NCBI GenBank assembly: GCA_026004395.1
Contig: BPJB01000001.1
Span: forward strand, 15,543 to 79,542
DNA: 64,000 nt
Origin: Patescibacteria group bacterium
GTDB taxonomy: Bacteria; Patescibacteriota; Microgenomatia; Levybacterales; UBA12049
Reading direction: 5' to 3'
The notes beneath the pieces were generated by a model. The model searched no databases, was not told the origin of the DNA, and saw nothing but the letters and a program-made list of their open reading frames with translations. Every line of letters starts with the position of its first letter. Positions within the stretch are counted from its first letter, which is position 1. Positions 5,232 through 15,789 of the stretch are shown piece after piece. Both the position numbers and the translations under genes were made by a program.

Positions 5232-6293
5232 ATGGTTCACATGGAGGTTATTCTCTTGGCAATACAGCAATTACTACAATCAGTTTTTTTAGCATTTAAT
5301 CCGCAAAGATTTGGTATTACATTTTTAGATCTTTTAATACTTTTAATAATTATATTTTATGCCTATGAAGGATATATGGTAGGATTTACCATTGCCTTTT
5401 TGGATCTTACAAGTTTTGTTTTGTCTTTTCTTTTAGGACTTAGCCTCTATGATAACGTGGGAAAATTTTTAGTTGAGGTGTTGGCAATGCCTTTGGGTTT
5501 TGCCAATGCAACTGGATTTTTTATTGTAGCCATTGTAAGTGAGATTTTAATCAACATTTTTTTGCGACGTATTGCTATGTACCTACCACGTTTTTCCCAT
5601 GAATCATTAATAAATAGAGTTTATGAGAAAATCTATCATTTTCTTGGAATTTTGCCTGGTATTGCATCAGCTGTTCTTGTTTTATCTTTTCTTCTTGCGC
5701 TTGTAATTGCGCTTCCAACATCATCACATCTGAAAAAGATAGTTACAGAGTCTAAGCTGGGTGGAAGATTGGTTATGCATACATCTAGCCTCGAGAGCAC
5801 TCTGAATAATATTTTTGGAGAAGCTATCCATGATACATTAAATGTCATTACCATTAAGCCTCAGAGTGAGGAGACAGTTAATCTTCATTTTACAGTCTCA
5901 TCTTCAACTATTGATCAGCAGGCAGAGGAAGCAATGTTACAGTTAGTCAATAAGGAAAGGGTAAATAGAGGACTTTTGCCCCTGAAAATGGATTTTAGGC
6001 TGCGCAAATTAGCTCGAGATTATGCACAAGACATGTTGCAGAGAGGATATTTCTCCCATTATAGCCCTGAGGGGCTATCTCCTTTTGATCGTATGACTCA
6101 ATATGGCATAGAATTTACTACAGCTGGGGAGAATCTGGCACTTGCTCCTAGTGTTCAACTTGCGCATCAGGGGCTTATGAAGAGTCCAGGACATAGAGCC
6201 AATATCCTCTCTCCTCATTTTCAAAAAGTGGGTATAGGAGTTATGGATGGGGGAATTTATGGAAAAATGTTTGTTCAGGAATTTACAGACTAA
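5232..6293 (+). CDS. CvpA-family membrane domain fused to a C-terminal CAP/SCP (YkwD-like) domain
   Basis: N-terminal 4-TM region resembles CvpA. The C-terminus has CAP motifs (GENLA..., SPGHRANIL, YFSHYSPEG). Confidence 0.65.
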   Translation: MVHMEVILLAIQQLLQSVFLAFNPQRFGITFLDLLILLIIIFYAYEGYMVGFTIAFLDLTSFVLSFLLGLSLYDNVGKFLVEVLAMPLGFANATGFFIVAIVSEILINIFLRRIAMYLPRFSHESLINRVYEKIYHFLGILPGIASAVLVLSFLLALVIALPTSSHLKKIVTESKLGGRLVMHTSSLESTLNNIFGEAIHDTLNVITIKPQSEETVNLHFTVSSSTIDQQAEEAMLQLVNKERVNRGLLPLKMDFRLRKLARDYAQDMLQRGYFSHYSPEGLSPFDRMTQYGIEFTTAGENLALAPSVQLAHQGLMKSPGHRANILSPHFQKVGIGVMDGGIYGKMFVQEFTD

Positions 6294-6361
6294 TCATTTT
6301 CTTAAGAAAGTGTATTTTTTTAGTTAGTGTAAAAGAGATTGCTAATAAATTGCACATTTTA

Positions 6362-7129
6362 CTACAAAGCAAAGAAGATAAGTATTCCTATTATTGATAA
6401 GAAAATTCCTCCAATTACAGTGATGGGTGTAACTGCACTTCCGGGTTGAGCCATTGTGGGTGTTGGTGTTTCAATTTGAGTTCCAATAGTTGGTGTTGGT
6501 GTCAGTGTTGGCGTAGGTGTATTGGTAGGTGTTGGAGTAGCAGTTGGCGCTGGAGTAGATGTAGGAGTGGGTGTTGCTACCATTCGGGTAGGTGTTGGAG
6601 TTGCAGTAGGTGTTGGTGTCGCTGTTGGAATCGGAGTGGGTGTAGGTGTTGGGGTAGGAGTTGGCAGTGGGCCACCAAGAGGCGGTGTAGGAGTTGAAGT
6701 AGGTGTTGCAGTTGGTGTGGGAGTAGCAGTTGGAGTGGGAGTTACAGAGCAGGTAGCTACAGCATCTCCTACTGGTCCTTCTCCACAAGAATTGATAGCA
6801 TTAACAATACATTGATAAGTTTTATTTGGTTCGATAGTAAATGTGACGAAGGTGACTGGAGTATCAACATTACCTTCCTTAATAAGTGCTCCTGTATTAT
6901 TCTCGATAATTTTGTAATGATAACCAGTTGCTCCATCAACTGCGTCCCATTCACATATTGCCTGATTGGCAACACATGCTGGCGGCGTAGGTGTGGGAGT
7001 AGGAGTGATTTCCTCTGCTCGTTGTCGAATGTCTTGTTGTTGTTGTGATAAATAAACAAGCATACCTACTCCTACTAGAAGGAGGGTACTGATGGTTATT
7101 ACAATAAATAGTTTTTTATTTATCTTCAT
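6362..7129 (-). CDS. PT-repeat surface protein with a Cys-containing Ig/FN3-like module, N- and C-terminal TM anchors
   Basis: Long (TPTP)n linkers, a central ~90-aa domain with 4 Cys, and hydrophobic termini. It overlaps the next gene by 4 nt. Confidence 0.5.
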   Translation of the reverse strand: MKINKKLFIVITISTLLLVGVGMLVYLSQQQQDIRQRAEEITPTPTPTPPACVANQAICEWDAVDGATGYHYKIIENNTGALIKEGNVDTPVTFVTFTIEPNKTYQCIVNAINSCGEGPVGDAVATCSVTPTPTATPTPTATPTSTPTPPLGGPLPTPTPTPTPTPIPTATPTPTATPTPTRMVATPTPTSTPAPTATPTPTNTPTPTLTPTPTIGTQIETPTPTMAQPGSAVTPITVIGGIFLSIIGILIFFAL

Positions 7130-8379
7130 AATTCTTCATTGCTGCAATTTGGACATCTAATGCGAACATTAAGTACTTGTTGCGGTACCGGACAGCTACT
7201 AGGTGTTGGAGTTGCAGTTGGAGTCGGTGTAGGTGTATCTGTTGGGGGTGGTCCGCCAATAGGAGGTGTAGGAGTGGGAGTAGGAGTTAAAGTGGGTGTT
7301 AATGTCGGGGTAGGTGTTTGGGTTGGTGTGGGAGATGGGATGACAGGTTGACAGACAGGGATAATATGATAGTAACCATCAATATATTTTTTAAGACCTG
7401 AGTAGTAATTTCCGGGTCTAAAAGATGGTAGGATACTGCCTTCAAATACATCTGTCTGCCAGGCACAATCAGGAAGCGTTACCTCAAAATAAACTGTCTT
7501 TCCGGGAGGAAGTTCATAGGAGATGGCGCTAAAGATGGTTTGTGTCCAAATCCAGTTATACTCCTGAGGACATTCCTCAGGGGTACAGGAAGGATAGGGA
7601 TCAGGATAAGGATAGTATGCTTTGTATGATGCCATCCCAACTGTTCGGGTCGTGCTGCCGTTGTTGGTGATTTTTCCATAGGTTTTGCCATTGACTGGTT
7701 TGTCCATTACGCAGCCATCAAGACCGGGGACAAGTTTGGCATTTTGGTAGCAATAGCTGTCTTGAAAATCAGTAGGTTTGGTTGTTGATGCCTTGCCAAT
7801 ATTATAGGTAGGTGTATCTGATATGGTGTATTCTACAGTCAGCTGATTATTGTCATAGAGTGATTGTCCTTCTGTCGCAAATTTATTGTAATTGATAAAG
7901 GCGCGTGCAACGTATCTGCCTGGTGTTGTTTTGCGAAAAGAAAACGCTTTTGTAAAACGTGATTGTGTAGAGGAACCATAGATAGAAGAGTAGGTAAACT
8001 TTGCTGAGGCTGCAAATTCTCCATTTCTCATAATAATATCTGCGCCTTCATCAGATCCAAAAGAGGCAGGGGTCGCTTTATCGGAGTAAATAGCAGTATA
8101 AGTTATCCCATCTGTTGATTCAGCTTTGGCTCCGCCTTGATTTTTGAGGGTGATTCGCACATAAATATCTTCATCTTTATTAAAAACAGTTTTGACATTT
8201 CCTCCTGCATCGGTTAGTTGTAAGCTTTCAACAACAAGATCTGGTTCTGTTGCTGCTTGTTGAGTGATATTTTGTCTTTGTTGCACTAAAAATACAGCTA
8301 GTGGTATGCCAACTAGCAAGGTTAAAAAAATGGTGAATGAAATAATAATTTTTAATAAATTCACTTCTTTATCCATCAT
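7126..8379 (-). CDS. membrane-anchored hypothetical surface protein with a PT-rich linker and a C-terminal CPNC motif
   Basis: N-terminal TM helix, a ~300-aa S/T/Y-rich globular region and a PT-rich tail; translationally coupled to 6362..7129. Confidence 0.5.
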   Translation of the reverse strand: MMDKEVNLLKIIISFTIFLTLLVGIPLAVFLVQQRQNITQQAATEPDLVVESLQLTDAGGNVKTVFNKDEDIYVRITLKNQGGAKAESTDGITYTAIYSDKATPASFGSDEGADIIMRNGEFAASAKFTYSSIYGSSTQSRFTKAFSFRKTTPGRYVARAFINYNKFATEGQSLYDNNQLTVEYTISDTPTYNIGKASTTKPTDFQDSYCYQNAKLVPGLDGCVMDKPVNGKTYGKITNNGSTTRTVGMASYKAYYPYPDPYPSCTPEECPQEYNWIWTQTIFSAISYELPPGKTVYFEVTLPDCAWQTDVFEGSILPSFRPGNYYSGLKKYIDGYYHIIPVCQPVIPSPTPTQTPTPTLTPTLTPTPTPTPPIGGPPPTDTPTPTPTATPTPSSCPVPQQVLNVRIRCPNCSNEEL

Positions 8380-8637
8380 AGGTAAAAATGCTGTTCATCG
8401 TCAACTGAAGATTAATATTTTTCATATATCAGATAAACACATGATTTTTGATAGTCAAATAAAACCAGAGGAGTTGAGGAAGGAATTATGGCATAATGAT
8501 ACGCTGAGATGCATTGTACACTTGTGGGGTAGAATACTTATTTAAGAAAAAGGAGAGAACCATGTTCACTGAGATATTGATTTTATTTTGTGGTTGTGCT
8601 CTATCAATCCTAGATAACTATTCTATAGGTTAGGTTT

Positions 8638-9711
8638 ATGAGCGGTCATAATTTAGAAAGAAAGGGATATTCTAGTAGTTCACGAATAAACAGACGAAAT
8701 CTTTTCAAAGGACTTGCTGGTCTAGGAGCAGAGAAGGCTCTGATCTCTCCTTTTACTCGTTTTTCAGAATCAGTTAGAGCAGCTGAATCGGTAGGAAAAT
8801 TAGATCTAGCTCTACCTGTAGCCGAAAAAGAACGAGATCCTCGTATAAAAGATCTTCCAGAAACAAAAGTGTTTTTAGGGCGAGATCTAAAAGAAAATAG
8901 AGATAGAATCATACGATTGGATGAAGTTGTCTTAAATACAAAAGACTACACTGAGACTGTAGCACAGAATAGATTGGATATAGCAACAGCAAACCACTTG
9001 GCACGTATTGATGCTTTATGGAACTATATCAATGGTGATCTTGATAAGCTGGAACATATGCTCATAACAGGAGAAATACCACCAGAACCAAATGCAGAAG
9101 AATTTATAGCTAAACTGCAAACAGATGATGATTTTTACCTTCCGATTTTTGCTGTGCGGGAGGGAAAAGAAGTAACATTGGAGAACTTGGAGCTTACGCA
9201 GTTTCTCGTTAGAAGTAAGAGAGATAAGGAAGGAAAAATAAGAGGCGGAGTACGCATACGCTATACAAGTCAGCCACCTCTAATTGTGCAGACAGGTACC
9301 CAGGAGCAGCCAGTTACAGGCTGGACTATACGAGTTACAGAAGAGAATGAGCTACAGTACGATATCTATACTGCAAATGTTTTAGTAAAAGGTTATCCTC
9401 AATACTACTTTAGTATGGGTCTAACTGGACAGATAATATCAGCTTTTGAATCTGCAATATTAACTTTGGGAAATGCCAGCCGAGGGACAAAATTTGGTGA
9501 TCCAGAGCTGAGGACATGGTGGACTAGATACGCTCTACATAATTATGAAGGGAGACGTTCTGAAAATGGATTAGCACTATTTTCTGATGAAGCTGAATTA
9601 TTAGCAGGTGAAATAAAAATAGATAGTAAAGGACAAGCAAGACCTTTTGGTCCACCAGTATTGCTTTTTAAGTCTCCTGATTTAGCAGATACTCCATGGG
9701 GATTCAATTAG
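8638..9711 (+). CDS. hypothetical exported protein with a twin-arginine (Tat)-like signal peptide
   Basis: N-terminus SSSRINRRNLFKGLAGLGAEKA matches the RRxFLK pattern followed by a hydrophobic stretch. Confidence 0.5.
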   Translation: MSGHNLERKGYSSSSRINRRNLFKGLAGLGAEKALISPFTRFSESVRAAESVGKLDLALPVAEKERDPRIKDLPETKVFLGRDLKENRDRIIRLDEVVLNTKDYTETVAQNRLDIATANHLARIDALWNYINGDLDKLEHMLITGEIPPEPNAEEFIAKLQTDDDFYLPIFAVREGKEVTLENLELTQFLVRSKRDKEGKIRGGVRIRYTSQPPLIVQTGTQEQPVTGWTIRVTEENELQYDIYTANVLVKGYPQYYFSMGLTGQIISAFESAILTLGNASRGTKFGDPELRTWWTRYALHNYEGRRSENGLALFSDEAELLAGEIKIDSKGQARPFGPPVLLFKSPDLADTPWGFN

Positions 9712-9826
9712 ATTTTTAAAATTTAGATTTTGAAAATGAAAACTTCCATTTTACAAGCATAGCATCCCTAGTGATTTGATCCTCATCTTCCGTACAGGTA
9801 ATTAGATATGCGACACCTACTCTTCA

Positions 9827-10651
9827 GGTATAACAAAATTAAGTGAGAAATGCAATCTTTTGGTATTGTATTTCTCAATCCGCTGTTCTAATGGCAAGTT
9901 TAACTCATTTAGACTCATATATCTGGTATCTGTTAACTGGTAGAATTCTTCATGATCAGTTTTGTGGGATCTTTCCACAACTCCATTTTGATTAGGAGTA
10001 TGAATCCAGATACTGATGTCTGATACTGATTGAAGTCAAGTATTTAACCATCTCAGATTGGAATTCATGGCCATTATCTTTGAATCATCTGAATAGCTAA
10101 TCTTTTCTTTCTTGCTTTAACTGTTAGTCTCTCAATAAAATCAATGGCATTTATTGTGTCTGTAAAGAATATACCTTGGCATACTTCCCTTTAGATACAG
10201 CAACTATAGCATTGTATTGAAATCTTTTGTTGGGCAGGAATTTGATATCCATCTAAACCAGTTTTCCAGGCACAGAAACAGAGTTAAAGAGTTTGTTTTT
10301 TCATCTTTCTCCTGTGCTTTTGGAGTATTAAACCTCTTCTTTTCCACTGGCAGACTTCTACCACCATAGACCAGGGGATGGTATTTAACCTGTTGGGCTT
10401 TCTGGACATTAACTTAATGGTATTTAGGTATTTAGGTTAAATCTTCTGTATCTGGCTCTGATTCTGTAGAAAGTGGCATGATGAATACCAAACAGTCTGC
10501 ACAAATACCTTACATTCTTAGTTTCCATAGCCTCATATGCATCCATCATCTTGAGCCTAAATTTCTCTCTGTCATTTAGAATCACTTCATGATTTCTAAT
10601 CCTCATTTGATACCTCCTCTCACTCACCCATTTTAGAGAAATGTGTCGCAT
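9827..10651 (-). pseudogene. IS481-family (DDE/rve) transposase pseudogene with multiple frameshifts
   Basis: HTH N-terminus (ORF 10424..10651: ...LCRLFGIHHATFYRIRARY). An rve core (HTPNQNGVVERSHKTDHEEFYQL) and C-terminus (YNTKRLHFSLNFVIPEE*) sit in other frames around 9830-10015. No continuous ORF. Confidence 0.65.
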
Positions 10652-10663
10652 ATGTGTTTACAC

Positions 10664-10711
10664 AATTCGTATACTTGACAAACTAAAAATTCGTATACTT
10701 GACAAACTAAA
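10664..10711 (+). repeat. perfect 24-bp tandem direct repeat x2 (aattcgtatacttgacaaactaaa), each carrying TTGACA; putative promoter/operator of the 10737 gene
   Basis: Read directly. A -10-like TATGATAAT lies downstream at about 10715-10726. Confidence 0.55.
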
Positions 10712-10736
10712 TCTATTATGATAATATCCCGCTGAT

Positions 10737-11633
10737 ATGAATACAGAACGTATTCAAGTGAGCAAATTGTTTGACAATTTGCATAATAGAATTAATAGAA
10801 GAGAATTTTTTAAAAGTGTAGCAGCTGCAACATCATCTCTTGTTTTTCCTCGAGCTGATGCAGAAGAACAGCTATTGTCGCAAGAACGGGAGCTTTCTTT
10901 CCGAGATACAAACGCTGCAATTATTTTTGTAGCTCAGTGGATTAATGATGTGTCGAGTGCTGGGTATGTTATTGACGGTGATGAATCTACTTATGGGAGG
11001 GCATGGAATAATTCTTCAGATGAGATGCGTAATCTTCTTATTTATCCTCCAGCTGAAGCAAGAATTAGAGAAATTGGTAATGTCGTAGGTTTAGATGATG
11101 GAAGATTTAAGATTACTGCAAAAGTAAACGGTTTATTTGATAAACCAAGTGTTGAGTCTACTCTTAATTTTATTGTAAGTAAAGAAGATACTGACAGATT
11201 TCAGATGGATTGGTCTGAACCTATCGATCAAACATCATCTCTTGTTTTTCCTCGAGCTGATGCAGAAGAACAGCTATTGTCGCAAGAACGGGAGCTTTCT
11301 TTCCGAGATACAAACGCTGCAATTATTTTTGTAGCTCAGTGGATTAATGATGTGTCGAGTGCTGGGTATGTTATTGACGGTGATGAATCTACTTATGGGA
11401 GGGCATGGAATAATTCTTCAGATGAGATGCGTAATCTTCTTATTTATCCTCCAGCTGAAGCAAGAATTAGAGAAATTGGTAATGTCGTAGGTTTAGATGA
11501 TGGAAGATTTAAGATTACTGCAAAAGTAAACGGTTTATTTGATAAACCAAGTGTTGAGTCTACTCTTAATTTTATTGTAAGTAAAGAAGATACTGACAGA
11601 TTTCAGATGGATTGGTCTGAACCTCTATCCTAA
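10737..11633 (+). CDS. Tat-signal exported protein with an exact internal duplication of a ~130-aa module
   Basis: N-terminus NRINRREFFKSVAAATSSLVFPRADA (RRxFxK + hydrophobic region + AxA). Residues ~31-164 are repeated exactly as ~165-298. Confidence 0.65.
   Translation: MNTERIQVSKLFDNLHNRINRREFFKSVAAATSSLVFPRADAEEQLLSQERELSFRDTNAAIIFVAQWINDVSSAGYVIDGDESTYGRAWNNSSDEMRNLLIYPPAEARIREIGNVVGLDDGRFKITAKVNGLFDKPSVESTLNFIVSKEDTDRFQMDWSEPIDQTSSLVFPRADAEEQLLSQERELSFRDTNAAIIFVAQWINDVSSAGYVIDGDESTYGRAWNNSSDEMRNLLIYPPAEARIREIGNVVGLDDGRFKITAKVNGLFDKPSVESTLNFIVSKEDTDRFQMDWSEPLS
10829..11624 (+). repeat. 402-bp head-to-tail tandem duplication (2 copies, ~394 bp identical) inside the CDS
   Basis: Copy 1 is 10829..11230; copy 2 is 11231..11624(+8). 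Identical through ...gattggtctgaacct. Confidence 0.9.
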
Positions 11634-12243
11634 TTGTATATTTACCTGTGAATTACTTAAAAAATTTTTATCCAGAATCTCACCTGTTTTATTTAATTAA
11701 ATTATAATAATATTGAATATTATAAGAGCAATTATATTCTGTAGATTTTATTCCACAAATTAAATCCTCCTTAGTGGGAGGGAATACATCGATTACACTT
11801 TGATATTACTCTTAATCTTGATTTATATAAATGGTTAAAAAGAATCATTATTCTTCAGAGAAGAAAATCGAAGCAATAATCTTGATAACAATTCAAGTTT
11901 TGAAGAAGGTTTTGAGAAAGACTGCAGACAATAGGATATTCAAAATGTTGTTTAAAAACATATACGCTTAAAAATGATGTAACCTTGATGTTTTAACATA
12001 ACAATTAAAAGAAGTGATTGGGTTTTTCAAAAGTTGAGTTCAGTATATATTTATGAAGTAAACTAGGAGTTAATAACTGACTTATTAAATAAAATGCGTG
12101 AGATTAGTATACCAGTCACTAATTAAAAACCACCATTAGAATATACTCAAGAGCATTTCTTCAAAGTATTACAGATGTCCCTTCCAGCAAATATTATTGA
12201 CAAATAAGACATTAAAAAAATATGTTATAAATATAAGTGGTAA

Positions 12244-12804
12244 ATGAAATTATACAATTCACGTAAATTCATTGGAATTTTCATTTTTTTTCTCATTTTT
12301 ATTCCGTTAATAATATTCTTATTTTCATTGTATAAAAATGGAACAATTTATGTCCTAAACAAAAGTAAAAATTATTATCTTTCTTACCAAGAAACTCCAG
12401 AATTTCTGAATCTTATAACAAATTTAGAAATTTTCATTAAAGAAGTGCATTTTGAAGGGGTAAGGATTAAATTAAGTCACTTGACAATCGAACTAGTAGA
12501 TATGCCTCAAGTGGTAACTTATAGTGAAAATAATAGTAGGTATGTTATTAATTCAATAATTTTGTTGGATGATAAACGAAATAATCTCGTGATCAGAGTA
12601 TATATACCTTTAGTGAATAAAACTCTTGATGAACAAAGATTAAGTCAAATTTTCCTTCAGGAAGTTGTAACAAAACTTTATGTAATTTCACATGAAGATA
12701 CAACTACTAAGATTCTTAATAAGGAAATACCTCTTATCATGAGCATTTTTAGGAATAACCCAGAGCAAAATCCTTTTAAAATAGCTATAAAGGTACAAAA
12801 ATGA
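12244..12804 (+). CDS. hypothetical membrane protein
   Basis: N-terminal TM helix; stop overlaps the next start (ATGA). Confidence 0.4.
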   Translation: MKLYNSRKFIGIFIFFLIFIPLIIFLFSLYKNGTIYVLNKSKNYYLSYQETPEFLNLITNLEIFIKEVHFEGVRIKLSHLTIELVDMPQVVTYSENNSRYVINSIILLDDKRNNLVIRVYIPLVNKTLDEQRLSQIFLQEVVTKLYVISHEDTTTKILNKEIPLIMSIFRNNPEQNPFKIAIKVQK

Positions 12805-13985
12805 AAGTTTTTTATCATTTAATCTTGCCAATAATTGGTTCAATTCTTGTATTATTTTTATTTTTTGTTAATACTCAGGTCATTGACGCCTATCATATAC
12901 AAGATTGTAGTAGAACAGTTACCGGTCCAAACGGAAGTGTTCTTTGTTGCACTTATGATACTGATCTTGGAGATGGAACTGGCGGGCCGGCAGCATTATG
13001 TAATCCACCTTCTGGTGGTGATGGTAGTTATAATGGTCCGTATACTGGTGATGGTAGTTATGATGGTCCTTACAATGGTTCGTATTTACCTGATTTTCGG
13101 GTGACGTCAGTTGGTGCGAGGAATAGGAATGGTAATACTCAGTCGTATTTTGTAGCGGATTCTCCTACGTATAATATCGATGGAGATCCGATATATGTAA
13201 CTGTGGATATTTTAAATGATGGGAATGGGTATCCAGATAGTTCTTCAAGGCATGCTGTGTATAAGGATGTTGATGCATATAATAGTGGTTCAGCCTCCAT
13301 GTATATAGATTCATCTAATAACTGGCCTCCAGGGTTTACTGCTACTTATCAGTCGTGGCCTGGGGGGGTAAGGAGTGATCAGTTTACCAGTCCTTTTTTT
13401 ACGCAGCGTAATGCAGGTAGGTATAGGGTGTATGTTAAAGCCAATTATAATAATGCGGTATCAGAGTGGAATTATTCCAATAATACAGGGTCTAGCGCTA
13501 TTTATGAGGTCAGATCATCAATTTTTGGTTGGGTGTGTTGGAGTAAGAATGAGGATGCCCAGTGTGATGATGCTAGTGGGAGTACACCTGCTGATCCTCT
13601 GGTGAGTAATATTCGGATTACGTTGTATAAGGATAATAATAATAACTATGGTACGTTGGTGGCAACGGATACTACGGTGCAGACTTCTAATTGGAATAGG
13701 AGTTATGCGTTTGATAATCTGAGTGCGGGAGATTATTTGGTGAGGTGGGATGATCCTGACTGGCTGCCTATCTCCTCACAAGCTAGGACAGCGACACTTG
13801 GTCCGCATACGAGGATACGCTTTGCGGTGAAGCCAGCGTATAGGCTTTGGGGTTATGTGTTTGTGGATAATGATCGGGATGGGGTGCGGGATAGTGATGA
13901 GACGGTTGGATATTCTGGGGTGAGTGTTAGTTTGAGTGGTACAGAGAGTAGGACGACGACGACAGATGCTAGATGGGATGTATGA
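12801..13985 (+). CDS. SdrD-B-like/Cna-B-repeat surface adhesin, N-terminal part (frameshifted from 13936..15639)
   Basis: Signal/TM N-terminus. SdrD_B-like module: GYVFVDNDRDGVRDSDETVGYSGVSVSLSG...TTTTDA. It ends 50 nt inside the next ORF. Confidence 0.6.
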   Translation: MKVFYHLILPIIGSILVLFLFFVNTQVIDAYHIQDCSRTVTGPNGSVLCCTYDTDLGDGTGGPAALCNPPSGGDGSYNGPYTGDGSYDGPYNGSYLPDFRVTSVGARNRNGNTQSYFVADSPTYNIDGDPIYVTVDILNDGNGYPDSSSRHAVYKDVDAYNSGSASMYIDSSNNWPPGFTATYQSWPGGVRSDQFTSPFFTQRNAGRYRVYVKANYNNAVSEWNYSNNTGSSAIYEVRSSIFGWVCWSKNEDAQCDDASGSTPADPLVSNIRITLYKDNNNNYGTLVATDTTVQTSNWNRSYAFDNLSAGDYLVRWDDPDWLPISSQARTATLGPHTRIRFAVKPAYRLWGYVFVDNDRDGVRDSDETVGYSGVSVSLSGTESRTTTTDARWDV

Positions 13986-15639
13986 GTTTACGGGTCTTCC
14001 ACGTGGTACGTATACGATCACGATTACTGAGCCTAATGGGTATAAGGCGTATCCTTCAGTGAGTAAGCAGCAGGTAATAGATCTTAATGAGACTCAGAGG
14101 AACTGGAGGAATGATTTTGGGATCAATCGTGTGTATAGTATAACAGGTAGGGTTTATGCTGATGCTAATCAGGATGGGAGTTATTCAGCAGCTGATGATG
14201 TAGCGATAGTTAATCAGGGTGTTAGTTTGACAGGGAGTAGTTCAGCGAGTGTTGTTACTGCTTCAGATGGTGTGTATAGTTTTAGTAGGCTTGAGCCTGG
14301 TGAGTATTTTGTGAGTACTACACCCTCAAGTGATTATACAGTGTTGACATCCTTGCCTTTGCGGGTGGTAATCACTTCTTCTGATGTTGCTAATCAGGAT
14401 ATTCGTTTTTATGGTAAGTATACGATCTCAGGGGTGGTGTTTGTTGATGAGGATGATAGTAAGACGAAGAATAATCAGGAGCAGAATTATCCAGCTAATC
14501 CGCAGATAGCAGTTACCTCATCTCCAACTGGAGCTCCTCTTCCTCAGGTGGTGAATAATGCTGATGGTTCGTATCAGGTAACAGGACTTATCTCAGGGGA
14601 GTATACAGTGGCGTATAGTGCGCTGCCTCTTGGGTATTATGTGTTTCATCCCCGACCAGCGTTCTATGCTCCAAGAGTTGGTGTTGGCTGTAGTCCTGCG
14701 CCCCAGTCACCAGGAGGAAGCTGTGATGGAAATAACAATATAGTTGATCTGAACTTTGCGATCAAAGCTGGTGAGCCGTGGATGCAGATCTATGGTGCGG
14801 ATGTGAGGTTTGATGAGGGGTTGAATGACCCTGTGCCTCCAACACCTAATGCTGCCTGTGGTGGTGCTTATGTGATCCTGCCGGGTAGTGGTGGTACTCC
14901 TGGTGTTGGATTTAGTGGAGATCTGCCACCTAAGCTTAATCTGGGTAGTATCTCCTCTTTGGGTTGGCTGGTGGGTGGTGTCCAGTATCCCTCGTTGTTT
15001 AAGCCGGTGAGAGCTAAGGTGATCAGAACAGCTTATGGTTATCTGATGTTTGCTGTTGGTCGGGGTAATGTGCGTACTGTTAATCTCTCCTCTGTTTGTA
15101 ATCCTGCCAACTGTACTCTGCCTGCTTCTTTGGCATCAGGTATCTATACTGCAACAGGAAATGTTAATCTTAATGCTTTTACCTTTCCTGCTAATCGGGA
15201 CTATATCTTCCTCATAGATGGTACTCTGCGTATTAAAGGACAGATCCGAGTTCCCACTACCTCAACAGCTACATTCTCTGTCTCTGAGGATATACTCATT
15301 GATGGCAGTGTGGGTAGTCCTCCTTCCTGTCCTCCACCAGCTGTTGGAGCTGCTGATCTGGAGGGTTTTTACAGTGCTGATCGCAACTTTATCGTTGAGA
15401 GTTCTCCTCAGACTGACTGTTCAGCAGGTATCATCGATAAACAGCTTAATGTCCAAGGAGCAATTGTTGTGGATGCTGGACAGAGAACACCAGGTGGAAG
15501 ATTTACCAACAACAGAACCTTCTGCACCCAAAATATTGACTACCCCTCCTTCACCCTCAGAGCTAGACCTGATTTCATCCTTAATGCCCCTGAGTTCATC
15601 AAACGCGAAAACTTCATCTGGCAAGAAGTAGCACCATAA
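13936..15639 (+). CDS. SdrD-B-like/Cna-B-repeat surface adhesin, C-terminal part
   Basis: Repeated modules G(R/V)VYADANQDGSY...GEYFV and GVVFVDEDDSKT...GEYTV. The junction ...TTTTDA|DGMYEFTGLPRGTYTI is restored by removing one base near 13970. Confidence 0.6.
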   Translation: MVQRVGRRRQMLDGMYEFTGLPRGTYTITITEPNGYKAYPSVSKQQVIDLNETQRNWRNDFGINRVYSITGRVYADANQDGSYSAADDVAIVNQGVSLTGSSSASVVTASDGVYSFSRLEPGEYFVSTTPSSDYTVLTSLPLRVVITSSDVANQDIRFYGKYTISGVVFVDEDDSKTKNNQEQNYPANPQIAVTSSPTGAPLPQVVNNADGSYQVTGLISGEYTVAYSALPLGYYVFHPRPAFYAPRVGVGCSPAPQSPGGSCDGNNNIVDLNFAIKAGEPWMQIYGADVRFDEGLNDPVPPTPNAACGGAYVILPGSGGTPGVGFSGDLPPKLNLGSISSLGWLVGGVQYPSLFKPVRAKVIRTAYGYLMFAVGRGNVRTVNLSSVCNPANCTLPASLASGIYTATGNVNLNAFTFPANRDYIFLIDGTLRIKGQIRVPTTSTATFSVSEDILIDGSVGSPPSCPPPAVGAADLEGFYSADRNFIVESSPQTDCSAGIIDKQLNVQGAIVVDAGQRTPGGRFTNNRTFCTQNIDYPSFTLRARPDFILNAPEFIKRENFIWQEVAP

Positions 15640-15789
15640 ATTTTAAGAATTGCTAGTTTGCTTTTTCTCAATGTAAAAAAAATCTTGCAAAGTTATTTTT
15701 TTACAATACTTACTCTACAGTTTAAAGTACTAGTTGGCTGTTTTATATAAAGGCTTGTTTAGGATATTATTTTTGCTTATACTTACTAT

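Follow-up and report, generated by a model that had tools for sequence, protein, structure and literature searches.

Within a single gene of an uncultivated Patescibacteria lineage two perfectly identical blocks follow each other head to tail, which raises the question of whether such a repeat is a fresh mutation, an old domain repeat kept uniform, a locus with variable copy number or an error of assembly. The gene was analyzed computationally within a stretch of 64,000 nucleotides (here called the window, ~6% of the genome). Its open reading frame (ORF) of 298 amino acids (10737-11633, plus strand, as are all features inside it) encodes a signal peptide and two identical modules. The product is identical to the NCBI entry “hypothetical protein KatS3mg089_0026” from a Patescibacteria metagenome-assembled genome, and the gene sits on a contig of 1,084,101 bp. 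This genome, KatS3mg089, has been assigned to the Microgenomatia, order Levybacterales, family UBA12049, as a novel genus (PMC9671151, Supplementary Table S3). Here, we argue that the repeat is quite probably a genuine, evolutionarily recent, non-homologous in-frame tandem duplication of approximately the whole mature protein.

At 10829-11624 Tandem Repeats Finder reports an array with a period of 402, 2.0 copies, 100% matches, no indels and a score of 1592, and a second, independent repeat finder gives the same array. Copy 1 (10829-11222) and copy 2 (11231-11624) comprise 394 nt each and match at 394 of 394 positions in a base-by-base comparison; a chance origin of this identity is negligible. 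Copy 1 extends from the third base of codon 31 to codon 162 (…DWSEP), and at its left edge the identity stops abruptly with no further base shared leftward. Between the copies lies an 8-nt filler, ATCGATCA (11223-11230), which together with the next base encodes I-D-Q. Copy 2 lacks these eight bases and is followed by CTATCCTAA, stop codon included (CTA TCC TAA; L-S-stop). The array thus consists of 394 + 8 + 394 nt rather than of two full 402-nt units, so that of the “402-bp duplication” described in the first-pass annotation the period was correct but not the presence of two complete units. As 402 is divisible by three, both copies share the frame of the ORF, and the tandem, perfect and in-frame doubling of a module of ~131 amino acids, as it had been read before, is borne out. 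In the translation the order is MNTERIQVSKLFDNLHNRINRREFFKSVAAA, a segment TSSLVFPRADAEEQ…DWSEP, the tripeptide IDQ, the same segment again and finally LS. A candidate third, degenerate copy downstream was rejected, since it is AT-rich, does not keep the register of the array and reaches 69-72% identity over 32 nt.

The junction itself is informative. Simple unequal exchange or slippage leads from A-X-B to an arrangement A-X-X-B, in which any extra bases at the junction repeat either the first bases of B or the last ones of A. The filler ATCGATCA agrees at two of eight positions with the 5′ flank of copy 1 (GCAGCTGC) and likewise at two of eight with the 3′ flank of copy 2 (CTATCCTA), so it matches neither flank and the junction is not explained by them. 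Since the filler is unlike either flank we infer that the event was non-homologous, i.e. end-joining with filler or template switching. The 14-nt string across the junction, CCTATCGATCAAAC, is unique in the 64-kb window. As a template for the filler three unrelated sites in the window carrying the same 8-mer were considered and dismissed, their number being about that expected by chance. Two further features are given little weight, namely the position of the left breakpoint immediately 3′ of an 8-nt palindrome (again GCAGCTGC) and a loose likeness of the filler to the ATCATC motif at the start of the unit. Whereas the right breakpoint lies two codons before the stop, the left one falls into the third base of codon 31, in the h-region of the signal peptide.

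From these elements the following course of events may be proposed. The ancestral gene probably encoded ~164 amino acids, namely a signal peptide of the RR type, a single NTF2-like domain and a two-residue tail. A non-homologous event would then have fused the domain's end (…GAACCT) with a site within the signal-peptide coding region (AACATC…), whereby the joining added eight untemplated nucleotides. Possible routes are illegitimate end-joining between sister chromosomes or template switching during replication. The reading frame would have been preserved at the junction either by chance or by selection. The resulting product should be composed of the signal peptide, the domain, a linker of ~30 residues and an identical second domain, the linker EP-IDQ-TSSLVFPRADA-EEQLLSQERELS representing the leftover tail of the signal peptide followed by the disordered segment with which the mature protein starts.

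All this presupposes that the repeat exists in the cell. The first-pass annotation had set an assembly artefact, collapsing or expanding a repeat, beside a very recent event, and this alternative turns out to be much weaker than assumed. The source material was sediment of the Katase hot spring, sequenced as PacBio HiFi reads (2.69 million, N50 10,544 bp, >Q20) that were assembled with metaFlye 2.8.3 (PMC9671151). The genome KatS3mg089 is represented by one contig with 35.6% GC and 10x coverage that was not circularised (PMC9671151, Supplementary Table S3). In the case of an artefact of assembly or consensus the true genome would have one (or another) copy number and metaFlye would have built a two-copy consensus. 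Coverage of only ~10x and the open contig leave some room for such an error, and an artefactual copy would likewise be perfectly identical. However, collapse and expansion of repeats is a short-read problem, and HiFi reads (N50 10.5 kb, >Q20) that are ~10 times longer than the 0.8-kb array, and thus span it many times over, make it unlikely here. Moreover, an assembler does not invent eight bases that are absent from both flanks; because ATCGATCA is found in neither of them it must come from the reads. The site also appears internal to the 1.08-Mb contig (locus tag 0026; about ten ORFs of at least 100 amino acids upstream in the window), and the 64-kb window contains no second such duplication nor any tandem repeat of comparable size besides 10829-11624. 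An artefact is consequently regarded as highly improbable. At ~10x coverage the population may nevertheless consist of a mixture of one-copy and two-copy molecules.

The duplicated segment begins inside a predicted signal peptide, and this bears on the age of the repeat. Read from the translation, the signal peptide covers residues 1-42 (10737-10862) and shows the sequence N-R-R-E-F-F-K (RR at 10797-10802), a weakly hydrophobic h-region (SVAAATSSLVF) and a c-region (PRADA) with a basic residue and an A-x-A cleavage site predicted before E43. By eye these features correspond to a Tat signal of the S/T-R-R-x-F-L-K type with weak h-region, basic c-region and A-x-A. Within the window the combination of RR-x-hydrophobic-hydrophobic and a signal-like N-terminus is restricted to the ORFs 10737-11633 and 8638-9711; two further ORFs fit the loose RR pattern without a signal-like N-terminus. 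Tat-signal models, presumably represented in these libraries by TIGR01409 (NCBIfam) and PF10518 (Pfam), gave no match for the protein even with E limits as permissive as 10 for NCBIfam and 0.01 for Pfam, which is a weak negative as short models are easily filtered. Queries with TatA, TatE and TatB produced no significant tblastn match in the 64-kb window. Tat components have been reported in Microgenomatia generally (PMC9166423). The earlier designation of the protein as Tat-exported thus agrees with the RR motif, the h-region and PRADA but not with the missing family match, nor with the Sec-type signal of its sole homolog (see below). Export via Tat appears plausible, and “secreted” is the safer label for what is predicted. 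The translation contains no motif of a wall or membrane anchor.

The other ORF with such an N-terminus (8638-9711, 357 amino acids) has no match in Pfam, NCBIfam or PHROG and starts with a similar RR-type sequence (SRINRRNLFKGLAGLGA; SRINRRNLFK). A recent borrowing of the N-terminus from this ORF was considered and rejected, since just 11 of 24 residues are common around RINRR.

Copy 2 has retained the tail of the signal peptide, TSSLVFPRADA, including the A-x-A cleavage site. This points to a raw DNA event rather than to an evolved domain repeat, because an old, functionally shaped internal repeat would be expected to have lost both the tail and the cleavage site. The absence of any difference in 2 × 394 nt would bound the age of the duplication only loosely: at a rate of 1e-9 substitutions per site and generation an upper limit in the range of a few million generations would follow.

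Comparison with related sequences depends on a very small family. A word-indexed search of 5.8 billion proteins returned the protein itself only, and exhaustive HMMER searching of 1.84 billion cluster representatives revealed a single true homolog, P0002 (39% identity, E 1.2e-13). A further HMMER match, P0003, was discarded as spurious, since its score was boosted by the repeat through six weak stretches and the pairwise comparison left a local similarity of 21 residues. With P0002 as query only P0002 was retrieved, i.e. it is itself an orphan. Neither GTDB genome contigs nor viral contigs contained relatives of the module, and scanning of metagenomes for it led to the contig of P0002 alone. 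Judged by these searches the family appears nearly orphan, about 15 billion proteins containing two members of it.

P0002 comprises 257 amino acids with a Sec-type signal, one module only (residues 31-140) and an unrelated additional C-terminal domain of ~115 amino acids. Its gene is located at 90-863 of a 1.7-kb metagenome contig (L001, identical with L002 and L003; Ga0210057_1111167, 1-1691). Downstream follows a homolog (184 versus 186 amino acids; 29% identity, E 8e-18) of the membrane-anchored hypothetical protein of 186 amino acids that is encoded at 12244-12804 (plus strand) in the window, and next to it a homolog of the SdrD-like ORF 12801-13985 (50% identity over 36 residues). A relative with a single module and the same downstream neighbours suggests that one module is the ancestral state and that the gene is a real coding gene. 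Together with the identity of 394 of 394 positions this relative makes a recent event, one of the two options named in the first-pass annotation, the best reading, the single-copy state being seen in the sole known homolog. The shared order also supports a functional link between the gene and the downstream surface proteins, as far as gene order can indicate it.

The gene of P0002 has 61% GC (36% here), and its syntenic downstream genes, which follow a strong hairpin terminator, have ~33%. Despite the conserved order the contig thus shows a sharp GC break at ~900, for which a chimeric contig, a mobile cassette or transfer from another lineage could each account.

What has been duplicated is best described from a structural model. 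The module was modelled with AlphaFold2 from an alignment of only two sequences (pLDDT 76, pTM 0.72) and shows about 12 disordered residues at its start, followed by three helices and four long strands. In the model the three helices are packed into a curved antiparallel sheet in the manner of the NTF2-like α+β cone. A model of the full 298-residue protein without alignment reached a pLDDT of 35 and was kept out of the fold searches. The best PDB matches found with Foldseek are all NTF2-like, namely TcpC (3ub1), designed NTF2 proteins and the N-terminal domain of PBP2a, all of them weak (E ~2e-3, TM-scores ~0.55). By sequence, Pfam, NCBIfam, PHROG and the PDB sequences yielded nothing beyond noise below threshold, so that no curated family, NTF2-like and SnoaL families included, was matched. 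At the level of a predicted model the module can be regarded as an extracytoplasmic NTF2-like domain.

The predicted folded core occupies residues 55-161 in module 1 (10899-11219) and the same sequence in module 2 (11301-11621). As both breakpoints lie outside this core both domains should fold, and the new protein should represent two intact domains on a flexible linker of ~30 residues. NTF2-like domains commonly act as dimers. This property and the apparent tandem domains in the best structural match suggest that the fusion is likely tolerated, and by analogy the covalent pair would be expected to form a pseudo-dimer or to double the binding valency.

The structural analogues also provide an argument for a different history, in which the protein would have possessed two domains for a long time and ongoing gene conversion would have kept its repeats identical, i.e. 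concerted evolution as in some repeat-bearing surface proteins. TcpC (3ub1) and the VirB8-like OrfG (8s7l) appear to carry tandem NTF2-like domains, in line with target lengths that are about twice the aligned length, and perfect identity with sharp ends on both sides is also what conversion can leave behind. On the other hand, the sole homolog P0002 combines one module with an unrelated C-terminal domain, and the repeat includes a signal-peptide tail and cleavage site that are without role inside a mature protein. Conversion that reached over the entire unit as far as the 8-nt junction would look the same as a fresh duplication and is the less economical explanation, so that we attach very little probability to conversion and retain a recent duplication. 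Assignment to the VirB8/TcpC class is not indicated either. Sequence similarity to TcpC or OrfG is not detectable, both of these have an N-terminal membrane anchor in contrast with the predicted cleavable-type signal found here, and their two domains have diverged whereas those of the present protein are identical. Genes for conjugation or type IV secretion were not seen nearby, the neighbours being hypothetical, SdrD-like, an insertion sequence remnant and housekeeping genes.

The surroundings of the gene show other recent or ongoing rearrangements, i.e. a remnant of an insertion sequence, a 24-nt duplication in the promoter and a frameshifted neighbour gene. A near-consensus promoter-like site (10699-10727, plus strand) consists of TTGACA, a spacer of 17 nt and TAATAT, with TG before the second hexamer (TGnTAATAT). 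Its end is separated from the ATG by 9 nt without a visible Shine-Dalgarno sequence; accordingly, the mRNA is probably leaderless or nearly so. The −35 hexamer TTGACA is doubled by a perfect tandem duplication of a 24-nt unit, AATTCGTATACTTGACAAACTAAA (two copies, 10664-10711, plus strand), that occurs nowhere else in the window. This duplication starts 2 nt past the end of a decayed insertion sequence located directly upstream (9798-10661, minus strand), in which an N-terminal HTH_28 fragment (10424-10651) and the tail of an rve_3 integrase core (9817-9978) are separated by stops. Imperfect 19-nt inverted repeats (9798-9816 and 10643-10661, 84% complementary) form its ends, and a second copy is not present in the window.

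On the downstream side the gene is followed by a spacer of 610 nt (11634-12243, ~25% GC), unusually long for a compact genome. Searches of it with P0002 (tblastn) and with the repeat unit (blastn) gave no match, and nothing in it recalls the C-terminal domain of P0002. It contains a pair of inverted repeats (11676-11697 and 12084-12105; 22 nt, 86% complementary, 386 nt apart) that resembles a MITE and has no second copy in the window. Further downstream the SdrD-B-like ORFs 12801-13985 and 13936-15639 overlap and look like one surface-protein gene of ~945 amino acids. A +1 frameshift near 13966 (…TTTTDA / DGMYEFTGL…), outside any homopolymer, divides it in two, so that the gene is either a pseudogene or affected by an error of the consensus at 10x coverage.

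In the two nearest GTDB genomes GAPDH is 64-69% identical, 69% being the best value among GTDB representatives. There the CAP/CvpA gene (5232-6293 in the window) directly adjoins the GAPDH gene (15790 in the window) or is ~2 kb apart from it, and none of the genes found at 6300-15700 lies between the two. This region of ~9.4 kb has the appearance of a lineage-specific island and comprises four ORFs without Pfam match, the SdrD-like genes, the duplicated gene and the insertion sequence remnant. As it has no counterpart in the nearest genomes, the duplication falls within a non-conserved, rearrangement-prone stretch. At 6492-6743 the region contains degenerate tandem repeats of 12, 18 and 24 nt (similar to GGAGTTGGAGTA) of low complexity, and these are part of a minus-strand ORF (6362-7129, 255 amino acids) without family match.

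With these surroundings in mind the locus might be seen as selected or programmed for variable copy number, in which gain and loss of the 402-nt unit and the duplication of the −35 hexamer would tune the dosage or valency of a secreted protein that interacts with a host or a surface. Perfect tandem duplications with a unit of 20 nt or more number just two in the 64 kb; these are 118 nt apart and affect the promoter and the body of one and the same gene, a proximity for which random placement has a probability of ~3% (estimated post hoc). In addition, the product is predicted to be secreted, its neighbours are surface proteins with SdrD-like repeats, and the nearest relatives lack the region between GAPDH and the CAP-domain gene. 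Nevertheless, there are two copies only, slipped-strand phase variation would require units far shorter than 402 nt, and a decayed insertion sequence next to a frameshifted neighbour suggests relaxed selection rather than tuning, so we consider a programmed locus very unlikely. A related and more speculative proposal, equally at the level of an unlikely scenario, is that the coding duplication and the 24-nt duplication are two steps of one ongoing adaptive amplification that would raise the dose or valency of the secreted NTF2-like protein in an episymbiotic cell, with a copy number varying in the hot-spring population. If true, it would be a natural snapshot of the birth of tandem NTF2-domain proteins such as TcpC or the VirB8-like proteins. 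Since decaying features surround the gene, the duplication may simply be a lesion that is neutral or does slight harm.

Tandem duplications within genes are well known as mutations, and they are later lost or expanded by RecA-dependent unequal exchange. The present case resembles spontaneous bacterial intragenic duplications in its identical head-to-tail copies, the novel junction, the lack of divergence and the single copy in a relative. It differs from them by eight untemplated nucleotides and no microhomology at the junction, and by the doubling in frame of a whole domain starting from within a signal peptide. Perfect repeats of 394 nt are a substrate for unequal exchange of the RecA type, and loss and gain of copies in the population are therefore expected, which makes the variable copy number suggested in the first-pass annotation plausible. 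Similarity also exists with alpha C and Rib of group B Streptococcus, surface proteins with long identical in-frame repeats of Ig-like fold and variable copy number. Common to both are a unit of hundreds of nucleotides, perfect identity, a (here predicted) exported protein and the expected gain or loss by recombination. In contrast with alpha C and Rib there are two units only, a cell-wall anchor is missing, the unit includes signal-peptide sequence and the predicted fold is NTF2-like instead of Ig-like. With two units (at least three would be typical) and no anchor motif the protein departs from the surface proteins with variable repeat number.

The filler, the predicted NTF2-like fold, the unstable surroundings and the start of the repeat within the signal peptide had all been missed in the first-pass annotation. 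The duplication adds a new instance to a known class of mutations, and it affects an NTF2-like family that is practically undescribed and belongs to an uncultivated lineage; we know of hardly any description of such duplications in uncultivated Patescibacteria, the genome dynamics of which are to our knowledge accessible almost exclusively via consensus assemblies. In other respects it is an ordinary mutational event that would make a tidy case of the birth of a domain repeat. It flags, at the same time, a tiny uncharacterised family of predicted secreted NTF2-like proteins, both members of which are associated with a membrane protein and with a large surface protein resembling SdrD. If real and recent, the duplication would provide a clean natural example of the first step in domain-repeat evolution, in which a complete (predicted) folded domain has been doubled in frame, with breakpoints in disordered and signal-peptide sequence and with no divergence of the copies yet.
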